DNA of 64,000 nucleotides, taken from assembly GCA_026397045.1 (NCBI GenBank), contig JAPLVO010000006.1:1706-65705 (forward strand), in the 5' to 3' direction. This DNA comes from Patescibacteria group bacterium. GTDB lineage: Bacteria; Patescibacteriota; Saccharimonadia; CAILAD01; BJGX01. Numbering within the stretch: the stretch's first letter is position 1; each line of letters starts with the position of its first letter. Below are positions 10,248-61,770 of this stretch, in pieces. The position numbers and the translations under genes were made by a program. The notes under the pieces were generated by a model. The model had not been told where the DNA came from. It saw only the letters and a program-made list of their open reading frames with translations, and searched no databases.

Positions 10248-10321
10248 GCGGGTATAGTACAGCGGTAGTATGCGACCTTCCCAAGGTTGAGACACGGGTT
10301 CGACTCCCGTTACCCGCTCCA
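10248..10321 (+). tRNA. tRNA-Gly (anticodon CCC)
   Basis: GCGGGTA acceptor stem, anticodon loop TT-CCC-AA, GGTTCGACTCC T-arm, encoded CCA. Confidence 0.9.
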
Positions 10322-10322
10322 A

Positions 10323-10398
10323 GCCGATGTAGCTCAGCTGGCAGAGCAGTGCTTTCGTAAAGCAAAGGTCAGCGGTTCGACCCCGCTCATCGGCTCCA
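10323..10398 (+). tRNA. tRNA-Thr (anticodon CGT)
   Basis: GCCGATG acceptor stem, GCTCAGCTGG D-arm, anticodon loop TT-CGT-AA, GGTTCGACCCC T-arm, discriminator U, encoded CCA. Confidence 0.9.
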
Positions 10399-16739: not shown

Positions 16740-16816
16740 GGGTCCTTAGCTCAGTTGGCTAGAGCGCTTCCTTGACGTGGAAGAGGTCAGAGGTTCGAGT
16801 CCCCTAGGACCCACCA
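16740..16816 (+). tRNA. tRNA-Val (anticodon GAC)
   Basis: GGGTCCT acceptor stem, anticodon loop TT-GAC-GT, GGTTCGAGTCC T-arm, encoded CCA. Confidence 0.9.
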
Positions 16817-17716: not shown

Positions 17717-18440
17717 TAGGCACAGTGAGCTAGTGTTCGCCATTTCCAAAGTGTCGGAAGGCAATATGAGCTATCGATGGGGTGATAAGGCTGAGGTTAG
17801 GCAATCAAGAGAACGGTTTTGTAATAAAATGGGAATAACTATTGATGATGTTTCGTCTGTATCTCTTGAGCATGGCAGCAAAATAGTTAGGATTGATGAA
17901 GGCAATGCTGGCTTGGGCATGGACCAAGAAAACGCCAGCCACTTTGAAGCTGATGGTTTGATAACTTTGTCATCTGGTATTGGCTTAATGCTAGTTGTGG
18001 CAGATTGTATTCCTGCAGTCTTTTATGAGCCTAAAAATCACCTTTTGGTCCTGGTTCACGCCGGCAGAATGGGGGTTGAATTAAACATTGCAAAACAAGC
18101 CATAATTGAAATGAAGAAGCTAGGGAATATTGATATTGAAGATATTATGGTCTTAGCCGGGCCTGCAATATCTGCTAAATCTTATGTTTTTGATTCACCT
18201 CAAGGGGTTGATATGGATTTCTGGGCAGATGACTTCGTGATTGGTGATGACGGCAAGTATCATATGGATATAAAGTCTAAATTCGAGTCTCAATTATTAG
18301 CAGCTGGGGTTGCCACACAAAATATTGATATTAGCCCCATAGATACCTACACAAATACCAATTATTTTTCTCATAGAAGGAGCACCGCAATAAACGAAAA
18401 GGAGGGTAGGTTCGCGGCGCTAGCCTATATCAAGCCCTAA
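17709..18440 (+). CDS. YfiH/PgeF family (DUF152, laccase-domain) purine nucleoside/peptidoglycan editing enzyme
   Basis: H...C...H triad context (VADCIPAVFYEP, LVLVHAGRMG); ATG at 17709 overlaps the galU stop; the ORF track start at 17661 is probably too long. Confidence 0.7.
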   Translation: MDNRHSELVFAISKVSEGNMSYRWGDKAEVRQSRERFCNKMGITIDDVSSVSLEHGSKIVRIDEGNAGLGMDQENASHFEADGLITLSSGIGLMLVVADCIPAVFYEPKNHLLVLVHAGRMGVELNIAKQAIIEMKKLGNIDIEDIMVLAGPAISAKSYVFDSPQGVDMDFWADDFVIGDDGKYHMDIKSKFESQLLAAGVATQNIDISPIDTYTNTNYFSHRRSTAINEKEGRFAALAYIKP

Positions 18441-18499
18441 AAACTTGAAAAAAGGGTATTATTAAGCTAATATATTCAGTATAAATAGAGCGTTTGAGC

Positions 18500-18642
18500 T
18501 TAAGCCTAACCATCTTTTGCAAGTTCCGAAGCCTGGGCGTACAGGGCAAAAAAGAGATCCACCAGGATAAGCCAAGTGGAACCTTCCGACAGAGTCGGAA
18601 CTTGGCATAGACGGGTGGTTTTTGTTTAAAAGAAAGGTAAAA
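18500..18642 (+). promoter_or_regulatory. thrS leader with T-box-like antiterminator element (two helices flanking a 7-nt UGGAACC bulge)
   Basis: GCCAAG(18571-76)-UGGAACC(18577-83)-UUCCGAC(18584-90)-AGA-GUCGGAA(18594-600)-CUUGGC(18601-06); UGGA is complementary to the UCCA 3' end of the tRNA-Thr encoded at 10323-10398. Confidence 0.4.
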
Positions 18643-20407
18643 ATGGAAATTTCAGAACAATCTCATAAGATAAGACACAGCTTGGCGCATATAATGGCCT
18701 CGGCCGTCCAAAAGATTAAGCCAGAAGCTAGCTTTGGTGTGGGTCCGGCAATCGATAACGGCTTTTACTATGATTTCTTGGTGGATGAAAACTTTACAGA
18801 AGCCGAGCTTAAGTCAATCGAAAAGGAAATGCGTTCGATTATTAATAAAAATATCCCTTTTGAACAAGAAAATTGGCCTATTGATAAGGCTATCGAGTAT
18901 TTTGATTCCAAGAATCAGAAGTTTAAGGTTGAATTGCTTAATGATCTTAAGACCAAAGGAACAACAGCAGTTGCTGATGCCGGCGATGATGATTTAGCCA
19001 AAGGCTCTGAAGGAGAAATTAAAGAGGTCAGTATCTATAGAACTGGTGATTTTATGGATTTATGTCGCGGTCCTCATGTAGATAACACTTCCGAAATTCA
19101 AGCTGATAGCTTTAAGTTGAATCGAACCAGCGGTGTTTACTGGAGAGGCAAAGAAGAAAACCCTCAGATGCAGCGTGTGTATGGCTTGGCTTTTGAGACC
19201 AAAGAAAAACTTAGTGACTACCTGCAGATGCTAGTCGAAGCTGAAAAGCGTGATCATCGCAAGCTTGGCCAGGAGCTAGATTTGTTTGTGTTCTCAGATA
19301 TGGTTGGCCCTGGACTTCCAATGTACACGCCTCGCGGCACAGTAATAATGAATCAGCTCAAAGAAGCCTTGAATGAAATTGGCAGAGACAACGATATGGA
19401 GTCGGTTAGTACGCCCCATTTGGCAAAACTCGACCTCTATAAGACCTCTGGCCATGCAGACAAATTTGAAGATGAATTATTTAGGGTTCAAAGTCACTAC
19501 AAGCAAGAATTTATTCTAAAACCCGTAAACTGTCCTCATCACACCCAAATATATTCTTCTAGGCCTAGGAGCTATAAGGATTTGCCAATTCGCTACATCG
19601 AGCAGACCATGCAATATCGTGATGAGAAGCCCGGACAAATAGGCGGCCTGCAAAGAACCAGAGGCTTTACAGTAGACGATGGCCACACTTTCTGTACTGT
19701 AGATCAAATTCAAAAAGAAGCAGACTTGATTGCAGAGGTTATCGAGAAGTTTTATCAAAATCTCGGCTTGTGGGGGGATCACTGGGTGTCGCTCTCGGTA
19801 AGAGACCCTAAAACTCCAGAAGCTTATATAGGCGACCCAGATGATTGGCAGCTGGCCGAAGAAATGCTGCAGAAGGTTTCTGATGATAGGGGCCTTGGCG
19901 CCAAGCGAATGGAAGGCGAGGCGGCACTTTATGGTCCAAAGCTAGATTTTATGTTCAAAGACGCCTTGGGTAGAGAAACCCAGCTGGCTACCATACAACT
20001 AGATTTTGCCATGCCAAAGAGATTTGAGCTGACCTATACAGATAAGGATGGCTCAGATAAAAGTCCTGTTATGATACACCGAGCTATACTTGGATCATTT
20101 GATAGCACCTGAGCAAGTTCGTGTCATTCCAGTGTCTGATAAGTTTGGTGAATATGCCAAGAGTGTCCATGAGAAGCTTCATAAGGTAGGCGTCAGGGTA
20201 AAACTGGATGATGATTCAGAATCATTGGCAAAACGCATTAGAAACGCCGAAAAGCTTAAGGTACCTGTGATTATGGTAGTCGGCGAGAAGGAGCAAGAAT
20301 CTGATTCGGTCTCAATTCGCAGGCATGGCAAAGGGGATTTGGGCTCAAGCAGCCTTGAACAGGCAATCTCTATGATTGAAGACGAGATTTCAAATCGGAA
20401 ATTGTAG
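18643..20407 (+). pseudogene. thrS: threonyl-tRNA synthetase (short form lacking TGS domain), reading frame broken near 20098-20112
   Basis: Catalytic core (HSLAHIMASAV, class II motifs) ends ...HRAILGSFDST-stop at 20112; the anticodon-binding domain continues in another frame from 20090 (LIAPEQVRVIPVS...). About 17 conserved residues (RF.AIL.EH..G.FP.W) plus one nt are missing at the junction. Confidence 0.8.
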
Positions 20408-60156: not shown

Positions 60157-61770
60157 ATGAACAATCCACAAGATAAGTTTACTGAAGCGCTGATTGTAGC
60201 TATGGGGGCTAGCTATAAGTCCTATGGTAAGTCGGATGTAGAACTCAGCGTTAGCCGTTGTAGTCCAAAGTTTGGCGATTTTAGTACCAATGTAGCCTTC
60301 AGACTGGCAAAAGACGAAGGGATTAGCCCAGAAGTGGCTGCAGCACCTATCGTAGCCGCCCTCTCAAACTGTAAAGATATTGTTAGCGCCGAGTATCTGC
60401 CGCCGGGCTTTATAAATGCCACATTAAAGCAGGAAATATGGGTAGATTACCTTGCAAGTATAGGTAAAGACTTTGGCTTTTCCAAGAAGGGCCATGGTTC
60501 AAAAATTCAGCTGGAATTTATCTCCGCTAACCCTACAGGGCCTCTAGTACTTACAAATGCCTGGCAAGGTTACTACGGCGATATACTTTCTAATATATTC
60601 TCATCTCAGGGCTACTTGGTCTCAAGAGAATATTATCTAAATGACGGTGGTAACCAGATAGTTTCACTAGGCAGAGCAGTGCAACAGTCATTAGGCAAGA
60701 AGTTCTCCGAAGAGATCGCTAGTGAGCTATACCGAGGTGAGTATATCAGTATTATTGCTGATATTATTACAACAGAAATAGGTAGCCCTGATCTAGTAAC
60801 GACTGCGGAGCCCAGCCAAATAGGCCTAAAAGCAGCCAAACTAATCCTAGAACAGTATATTAAGCCTGATTTGGCTCGATTAGGGGTTAAATTCGATTCT
60901 ATCTATTCTGAGGGCAGGCCAGACATACAAAAAACACTTAACCGACTTGAAGACGCAGGCCTAAGCAAACACAAGGATGGAGCATTATGGCTTGATGGCT
61001 CCAAGGTTGGCCTTAAGCAGGATGAAGTACTGGTTAGGTCATACGACGACGGCCATAGCTATTTCCTAAAAGACATCGCCTACCAACTTGAAAGGCTAGA
61101 GGAAAGAGGGTTCAATGAGACCATAACAATAGTCGGCCCCGATCACCACGGCCAATCAATTAGGCTACTTAATACCCTTAAAGCTCTTGGCCATAGCGGT
61201 TTTAGTGAGCTATCGACCCAGACAATCAGACTTATTAGGGCCGGTAAAGAATTTAAGATGAGTAAAAGAAAAGGCAATTATGTTTTATTGGATGACTTTC
61301 TCGATACAGTTCCGACAGAGGCCGCTAGATTCTATTTTGCTATGCGAGACACTAATACTCACATGGATTTTGATATTGATCTCATAAGCCAACATAGCTC
61401 CAAAAACCCTGTGTATTATTCGCTTTACGCATACGCTAGAGCCTGCTCTATTGAAGAAAAAGCCCAAAAAGAGGGTGTTGAGGTTGCTACATCACTAAAA
61501 GGTTACTCGCTAACTGACTGCGAGAAGCATATAGCAGTTGAGCTTTCTAAGTTGCCAGAAATACTACTGGAAATAACTAGCTCCCACAAAGTCCATCAGC
61601 TTCTGCATCACACCGTAGAAATAGCCAAATCATTCCATGAGTACTATGAGCAGGATAGAGTACTGAGCTCTACTAAGGCTGCTCAAAAACTATTCATAAT
61701 AGCTAGATTCAAACGAGCTTATGAATCTATATTCTCTATCCTTGGGGTAGACCTACTGGAAAAGATGTAG
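60157..61770 (+). CDS. argS: arginyl-tRNA synthetase-like protein with degenerate HIGH motif
   Basis: 537 aa; ArgRS catalytic core (SANPTGPL...GD.L.NI...GY.VSREYYLNDGGNQI), KMSKRKG (KMSKS-like), C-terminal DALR anticodon-binding domain. The HxGH signature reads VLTN. Confidence 0.8.
   Translation: MNNPQDKFTEALIVAMGASYKSYGKSDVELSVSRCSPKFGDFSTNVAFRLAKDEGISPEVAAAPIVAALSNCKDIVSAEYLPPGFINATLKQEIWVDYLASIGKDFGFSKKGHGSKIQLEFISANPTGPLVLTNAWQGYYGDILSNIFSSQGYLVSREYYLNDGGNQIVSLGRAVQQSLGKKFSEEIASELYRGEYISIIADIITTEIGSPDLVTTAEPSQIGLKAAKLILEQYIKPDLARLGVKFDSIYSEGRPDIQKTLNRLEDAGLSKHKDGALWLDGSKVGLKQDEVLVRSYDDGHSYFLKDIAYQLERLEERGFNETITIVGPDHHGQSIRLLNTLKALGHSGFSELSTQTIRLIRAGKEFKMSKRKGNYVLLDDFLDTVPTEAARFYFAMRDTNTHMDFDIDLISQHSSKNPVYYSLYAYARACSIEEKAQKEGVEVATSLKGYSLTDCEKHIAVELSKLPEILLEITSSHKVHQLLHHTVEIAKSFHEYYEQDRVLSSTKAAQKLFIIARFKRAYESIFSILGVDLLEKM

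Follow-up and report, generated by a model that had tools for sequence, protein, structure and literature searches.

Gene context of the thrS leader

The window analysed here is a 64-kb stretch of DNA from a Patescibacteria group bacterium (Saccharimonadia), contig JAPLVO010000006.1; positions are counted from its first letter, and related loci are designated by L numbers. It contains a gene for threonyl-tRNA synthetase (ThrRS), thrS, at 18643..20407, which starts with an ATG at 18643-45 and lies on the + strand, as do the leader elements and the tRNA-Thr gene described below. The gene is interrupted: the first frame, in which the SAD and class II core domains are matched, stops at 20112, and the anticodon-binding domain (HGTP_anticodon) is found in another frame at 20090-20407 (Pfam). 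The closest homologues are ThrRS proteins of 605 aa, several of them named Candidatus Saccharibacteria or Saccharimonadales. Compared with L001-L003, 53 nt are deleted between 20102 and 20103, which drops the segment ...ERFMM..LIEHFAGAFPLW... and shifts the frame. Another assembly encodes an intact ThrRS of 605 aa that is identical over the 489 aa of the first frame in the window. Either an error of assembly or a recent lesion could account for the deletion.

The ThrRS of Saccharibacteria is short, about 605 aa in the window and in the homologues P0001-P0120. Its Pfam matches are limited to SAD, class II core and anticodon domains, with none to a TGS domain. The Rfam families matched in the window include RNase P, tmRNA and tRNAs. 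A gene for tRNA-Val(GAC) lies at 16740-16816 of the window; almost all of the Saccharibacteria loci examined have such a gene at a distance of about 0.2-2.7 kb from thrS, in varying orientation.

Upstream of thrS, a consensus scan located a sigma-70-like promoter at 18445..18473, consisting of TTGAAA, a spacer of 17 nt and TAATAT. TTGAAA and TAnAAT blocks are also found in L001-L003. The transcript is predicted to start near 18480, which would give a leader of ~160 nt (about 18480-18642). A Shine-Dalgarno (SD)-like GAAAGG is found at 18632-37, within GAAAGGU at 18632-38. Between promoter and SD lies the element that is the subject of this work; it lies 37 nt upstream of the ATG, and the elements of the relatives are likewise located upstream of thrS.

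Architecture of the leader RNA

The 5' part of the element is an ultrashort stem, referred to as Stem I (18488..18526), of which all 10 pairs show two-sided changes among relatives. It consists of a basal helix (GAGC 18488-91 with GUUC 18523-26) and an upper helix (18498-504 with 18514-20), separated by an internal loop (GUUUGA 18492-97 opposite AA 18521-22). This arrangement, GAGC-GUUU-GA facing AA-GUUC, is K-turn-like by sequence pattern only, with a bulge of 4 nt and A.A in place of A.G. In L055, L058 and L060, a simple bulge occupies the position of the K-turn.

Stem I is capped by a terminal loop of 9 nt, CCUAACCAU, at 18505-13. The loop contains the threonine codon ACC followed by a conserved purine, A, at 18509..18512. 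An ACC-A specifier had been proposed in the first-pass annotation at 18506-18509; the motif is present but lies 3 nt further downstream. The A and C of the codon do not vary, nor does the A that follows it. At the third codon position most relatives have C, L027 and L041 have G, and L012 and L015 have U, so that about 38 relatives all display ACC, ACG or ACU, always followed by A. The complementary stems that surround the specifier loop, identified by alignment-free helix extension, differ widely among relatives.

The next element is a hairpin of 17 nt, P2 (18531..18547), formed by GCCUG and CAGG-G-C around the loop GGCGUA, with two-sided changes in all 5 pairs. It occupies the place expected for a Stem II or IIA/B domain. 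Among 23 sequences, C18538 and G18539 of the loop never vary, and the CG(U) resembles an F-box. No partner with which the loop could form a pseudoknot was seen in the leader by inspection.

P2 is followed by a segment that fits the pattern RRRxG-Stem III-AA (18552..18570). It comprises the purine string AAGAG at 18552-56, a hairpin corresponding to Stem III (AUCC 18557-60 with GGAU 18565-68, loop ACCA) and AA at 18569-70. Stem III is lengthened by covarying pairs in L004, L024 and L021.

The 3' part of the element, at 18571..18606, is the helix-bulge-helix that had been noted upstream of thrS, and its sequence was read exactly as described. Helix A1 pairs GCCAAG (18571-76) with CUUGGC (18601-06). 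The bulge UGGAACC (18577-83) has the 7 nt of a T-box bulge, UGGN followed by ACC. Helix A2 pairs UUCCGAC (18584-90) with GUCGGAA (18594-18600) across the loop AGA (18591-93). The basal pair of A2 is U18584-A18600; 25 sequences of the family have UA at this place, 3 have GC, 3 have GU, 2 have CG and 1 has AU. When both strands of the 64 kb were scanned for UGGNACC with flanking helices of ≥5 bp (A1) and ≥4 bp (A2), this helix-bulge-helix was the sole site. Mononucleotide shuffles yielded 0.185 sites per sequence at the same loose criteria; the real element has 6 and 7 perfect pairs.

Conservation among relatives

Relatives were gathered in two sets. A search with the ThrRS protein, retaining one genome per species, provided 42 thrS loci, most of them labelled Saccharibacteria or Saccharimonadales and a few labelled as other Patescibacteria. 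A homologous leader was found upstream of thrS in about 25 of these 42 loci. A search with a DNA pattern drawn from Stem III and the T-box region provided 19 metagenome contigs. The match is directly upstream of thrS in 18 of them, the remaining one being a chance match within a coding region. As the pattern fixed GATCC..CC, GGATAA and GTGGAACC, the invariance of these letters in L043-L061, including Stem III, is circular, and the arguments from conservation are based on the positions that were not fixed and on the protein-found loci.

MAFFT was used to align 23 distinct sequences. In this alignment every cell (100%) of A1, A2 and Stem III is paired, and 7 pairs change on both sides. Pairing falls to 42-53% when the partner columns are slid by one as a control. 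From the MAFFT alignment, which was not fitted to any structure, RNAalifold predicts A1, the bulge and A2, together with the terminator helix presented below. The view that the bulged helix is an antiterminator or discriminator core is supported, and the examination of relatives that had been suggested as a check proved strongly positive.

A covariance model (R1) was built from 11 close relatives. It has a single match in the window, at 18485-18608, with a score of 137.8 bits; no second T-box was detected in the window at E<=1, including upstream of argS (60157-61770). The model recovers all members of the clade of the window and the distant protein-found L021 (E=2.6e-10), and it recovers a second clade, described at the end, weakly. 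In the model-fitted alignment, 97.3% of the cells pair and 29 of 31 pairs in six helices show two-sided changes, a figure that leans towards the structure of the model. Measured from the basal helix of Stem I through the 3' strand of A1, the conserved RNA is ~125 nt long; it is found upstream of thrS in many Saccharibacteria.

Given the 53-nt frameshifting deletion within the thrS of the window, the leader might be a decaying relic in front of a pseudogene and no longer functional. This is very improbable, since no conserved pair has been lost from the leader, which scores 137.8 bits with the family model, and since the intact 605-aa ThrRS found elsewhere makes an error of assembly, or a lesion of very recent date, the more likely explanation.

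Match to tRNA-Thr

The window contains a gene for tRNA-Thr(CGU) at 10323..10398, identified by ARAGORN and from the sequence, which ends in ...GGC-U-CCA, with U73 as the discriminator base and an encoded CCA. The UGGA of the bulge is complementary to the UCCA acceptor end of this tRNA, as the first-pass annotation had pointed out. U73-CCA was found in all five tRNA-Thr(CGU) genes that were read (window, L047, L050, L059 and L060). The N of the bulge is invariant and so offers no covariation with the discriminator base.

The same annotation had matched the leader to the tRNA-Thr(CGT) gene of the window as a whole. The match holds at the acceptor end only, as the specifier ACC calls for the anticodon GGU, which CGU does not provide. 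A gene for tRNA-Thr(GGU) was not found in the window or in any related locus that was read. The tRNA-Thr(CGU) gene is separated by 1 base from a tRNA-Gly(CCC) gene, the two occupying 10248-10398 and both having an encoded CCA. This Gly-Thr pair recurs in L047.

Relationship to known T-box features

The Rfam T-box model, RF00230, which had been suggested as a check, has no match at its gathering score in the window or in 18 + 11 related loci. There was no match even at E<=10 when the search was restricted to 18380-18720 or to the leader of L020 alone. Membership in the T-box class is therefore argued feature by feature.

The leader precedes an aminoacyl-tRNA synthetase gene, displays a specifier followed by a purine, and has A1 and A2 separated by the bulge, a bulge N that matches the discriminator base of the tRNA, and RRRxG-Stem III-AA. 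The RRRxG-Stem III-AA and UGGN+ACC bulge motifs are defined in a review of T-boxes (PMC7583486). Other features of known T-boxes are missing. The distal elbow platform of Stem I, which is essential in transcriptional T-boxes (PMC7583486), is absent, Stem I being capped directly by the 9-nt specifier loop. A Stem II with an S-turn and a Stem IIA/B pseudoknot (F-box), missing solely in glycine T-boxes, were not identified between Stem I and the purine string, where only the 17-nt hairpin at 18531-47 is found. Truncated Stem I's scarcely bind tRNA without Stem II (PMC7583486). The terminal pair of A2 in the window is U-A and not the conserved G-U wobble, which serves as a steric sensor of the aminoacyl group.

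It is considered very probable that the thrS leader is a relative of the T-boxes that senses tRNA-Thr, as proposed in the first-pass annotation. This assignment is based on the specifiers, which are exclusively threonine codons followed by A, on the UGGN+ACC bulge, on RRRxG-Stem III-AA and on the match of the bulge to U73-CCA. These same features would be hard to explain without a tRNA if the leader and its terminator were instead bound by ThrRS or another protein, or were a plain constitutive attenuator. Such an RNA that does not sense tRNA is quite improbable, although it would account for the lack of a match to the Rfam T-box model and for the missing tRNA-contact modules of known T-boxes. 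The loop of P2, GGCGUA, might also be seen in its favour, as it holds CGU-A, like the anticodon loop of tRNA-Thr(CGU). The CGU is not conserved, however: it is replaced by CGA in L001 and by CGC in L002 and L047. With its third base varying, mimicry of the anticodon by the P2 loop for recognition by ThrRS was ruled out.

Putative terminator and switching

Downstream of A1, GGUGG at 18614-18 is followed by the U-run UUUUUGUUU at 18619-27 (together 18614..18627). GGUGG is complementary to CCACC at 18559..18563, which overlaps the 5' strand and the loop of Stem III. The two strands would form the base helix of an intrinsic terminator that encloses the intact A1, bulge and A2. This helix is short, at 5 bp, and the internal loop that it closes is 7x7. 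At its middle pair, 13 sequences have A-U, 8 have G-C and 1 has G-U (CCACC:GGUGG versus CCGCC:GGCGG); covariation of the helix rests on this single pair. Neither the middle base nor the 3' strand was fixed in the pattern used to search metagenomes. GGYGG followed by U4-6 is present in every member of the clade. In the protein-found L021, the 5' strand of Stem III is made up of the whole CCGCC, and GGCGG with a U-run follows the antiterminator.

As C18559 and C18560 belong both to Stem III and to the base helix of the terminator, the two structures are mutually exclusive. With ViennaRNA, the free energy is -33.1 kcal/mol for the state with the terminator and -28.4 kcal/mol for the state with Stem III. 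As the terminator state is lower in energy, the default of the switch would be OFF. No downstream complement of the 3' strands of A1 and A2, GUCGGAACUUGGC, was seen by inspection.

Control of thrS looks transcriptional, through this predicted intrinsic terminator. In the mechanism that is proposed, the anticodon of uncharged tRNA-Thr would pair with the ACC specifier in the terminal loop of the ultrashort Stem I, and its 3' UCCA end would pair with the UGGA of the 7-nt bulge between A1 and A2. The bound tRNA would lock the discriminator fold, from the purine string through Stem III, A1, the bulge and A2, and allow read-through. When uncharged tRNA is lacking, CCACC would pair with GGUGG ahead of the U-run, creating a long hairpin around A1 and A2, and transcription would terminate before thrS. 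The switch would thus oppose Stem III to the terminator base helix, instead of relying on the capture of the 3' strands of A1 and A2 by a downstream segment. Transcription attenuation of this kind, with Stem III competing against an enclosing terminator, is given a probability of roughly 0.6. The conserved architecture, the covariation of every helix, that at the base of the terminator included, the threonine-only specifiers, the complementarity of bulge and discriminator and the exclusivity of Stem III and terminator are direct observations; binding of the tRNA, sensing of its charging, termination and the direction of the switch are presumed from them.

The terminator might be real and the tRNA sensed, with a coupling between them that differs from competition with Stem III. 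The bound tRNA could block completion of the hairpin sterically or kinetically, or the leader could work chiefly by way of RNA stability or processing. A1 and A2 persist in both states, so that classical strand capture is absent. Moreover, the leaders of the second clade mostly have no Stem III, and the GC-rich core of their terminators is clear of the antiterminator, which suggests a non-canonical coupling throughout the lineage. Yet the sharing of C18559 and C18560, and the identity of CCGCC with the 5' strand of Stem III in L021, indicate that exclusivity is built into the sequence. A different coupling is held to be unlikely.

A translational output was put forward in the first-pass annotation, by sequestration of the SD as in actinobacterial ileS. 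The ACCUUCC of the bulge and A2 would pair with the SD GAAAGGU, the segment at 18520-29 would capture the 3' strand of A2 and A1, and binding of tRNA-Thr would free the SD. In the window, the segment CAAGUUCCGA at 18520-29 is indeed a perfect 10-bp complement of UCGGAACUUG at 18594-18603, and 6 of 7 pairs can form between anti-SD and SD. The ACC followed by a pyrimidine-rich A2 5' strand (UYCC) recurs in the clade of the window. The ultrashort Stem I's known so far also belong to translational T-boxes (PMC7583486).

The 10-bp pairing, however, is not conserved in 25 relatives examined with RNAduplex and by counting the longest helices: the nearest relatives, L001, L003, L031, L043 and L052, have only 4-6 contiguous pairs, in shifted registers. 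It is also energetically unfavourable, as a state containing it has about -6 kcal/mol or weaker, compared with -28 to -33 for the conserved folds, a cost of >20 kcal/mol. This pairing was therefore rejected. Inspection of the two helices proposed for the OFF state indicates that they would make a pseudoknot. The proposed anti-SD, ACC with the 5' strand of A2, stays paired in both conserved states, and its use would need the opening of A2. No conserved SD-sequestering helix was found in the clade; instead, every member has a covarying helix with a U-run in the interval from T-box to SD. The A2 strands of the second clade are not anti-SD-like. Altogether, translational control of the SD is improbable, and attenuation by the enclosing terminator is preferred. 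A GYYYCG segment following Stem I can form 5-8 bp with the 3' strand of A2 in L005, L006, L058 and L060; this pairing is inconsistent in L007, L054 and L059.

Comparison with described regulatory leaders

The leader resembles the transcriptional (class I) T-boxes of Firmicutes, such as those of B. subtilis thrS, tyrS and glyQS (RF00230), in its location before an aminoacyl-tRNA synthetase gene and in its specifier followed by a purine. RRRxG-Stem III-AA, the arrangement of A1, the 7-nt UGGNACC bulge and A2, and the N facing the discriminator base are also the same, as is the order of a helix with a U-run as terminator, then the SD. Unlike theirs, its Stem I measures about 39 nt, carries the specifier in its terminal loop and is devoid of a distal elbow platform (IDTM). 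It also differs in having no identifiable Stem II S-turn and no G-U at the base of A2, and in escaping RF00230. The predicted terminator is built without the 3' strands of A1 and A2, has the antiterminator inside it and competes with Stem III.

The translational (class II) T-boxes of actinobacterial ileS (Sherwood et al. 2015, with the M. tuberculosis and N. farcinica structures, as cited in PMC7583486) share with the leader an ultrashort Stem I without an elbow platform, a K-turn-like base and the discriminator core. They have, however, a Stem II S-turn and a IIA/B pseudoknot, both needed for tRNA binding, and they sequester the SD, whereas a 17-nt hairpin and a predicted terminator are found here. 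The amino acid is also different, threonine instead of isoleucine, and so is the phylum.

The leader has the core features of a T-box, lacks several of the accessory ones and appears to follow a different switching topology. The topology of its OFF state seems unlike that of every described T-box. That Saccharibacteria carry a minimal class of transcriptional T-box, which reads the tRNA through a codon loop and an NCCA-binding bulge only and sequesters Stem III in the OFF state, is put at about even odds.

In E. coli, ThrRS regulates its own synthesis by binding to the thrS operator, an RNA that mimics the anticodon arm of the tRNA with anticodon-like loops at the ribosome-binding site. The same gene is controlled by its leader RNA in that system. 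In contrast, the leader described here displays a codon, an acceptor-binding bulge and a predicted terminator.

The T-boxes listed in a survey of 2008 come from Firmicutes, Actinobacteria, Chloroflexi, Deinococcus-Thermus and two Proteobacteria, and from no other group (PMC2494555). The database TBDB was assembled with the Rfam model and a second model that was searched in Actinobacteria reference genomes only (PMC7778990). A perspective of 2024 describes the regulatory mechanisms of Patescibacteria as virtually unknown (PMC11665869). No literature linking T-boxes to Saccharibacteria, Patescibacteria, CPR or TM7 was found in a search with incomplete coverage of subscription journals, so that a prior description is possible.

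T-boxes are a model for how an RNA can read both the identity and the charging of a tRNA. If the proposed reading is true, the leader would belong to the first T-box class described for CPR/Patescibacteria and would contradict the rule that the elbow contact is needed in transcriptional T-boxes. A widely conserved leader without platform or Stem II, yet with a terminator, would show that the functional core of a T-box can be smaller, and that tRNA binding can be coupled to termination in a new way. It would also mean that T-box catalogues based on Rfam, such as TBDB, have a blind spot. A sensor of amino-acid starvation placed on an essential synthetase gene would be an entry point to regulation in Patescibacteria, and possibly a native part for genetic tools.

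Other thrS leaders in Saccharibacteria

A second clade of Saccharibacteria thrS T-boxes was found in L010, L012, L014-L016, L019, L020, L023, L027, L028, L035, L038, L039 and L041. These leaders precede the same gene, have a threonine specifier in a 9-nt terminal loop and a UGGAACC bulge, and give weak matches to the model of the window clade. They differ in their textbook K-turn (GAUGA/AGA), clearer than that of the window, and in a middle region that is longer and contains a CGWYAA motif. Stem III is mostly missing, as RAGURAAAG directly precedes A1; the hairpin is kept only in L023, L035 and L028. A separate terminator hairpin is located downstream. It begins inside the 3' strand of A1, where GAAA or GAGA pairs with the U-run, and its GC-rich core is clear of the antiterminator.

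In L015, the threonine T-box (ACU), at about 2190-2470, is located about 670 nt upstream of thrS and has a very long insertion in A2. The intervening stretch looks coding, in which case the T-box would control an operon and not thrS alone. In L012, the leader is broken by a run of N at 2720-2860 with a duplicated piece of the T-box beside it, an assembly gap or a scaffold join inside the element.

Terminator hairpins with the loop (U)UGCGAGA occur in or upstream of the thrS leaders of L019, L033, L035, L038, L039 and L041, at several unrelated positions. The motif is not enriched in the window, with 26 matches for 21 expected.

The thrS loci without a T-box, L008, L011, L013, L017, L018, L029, L032, L036 and L042, share another conserved non-coding block, located about 270 nt upstream of the gene. 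It consists of AGTACTAGCC-N4-5-TAnTACTA, then TTGTTATGAT (promoter- or operator-like), then GUUUUGCGAG and a terminator hairpin with a UKCGAGR loop. The block has no match among Rfam families; it may be an alternative regulatory leader of thrS or a small RNA.
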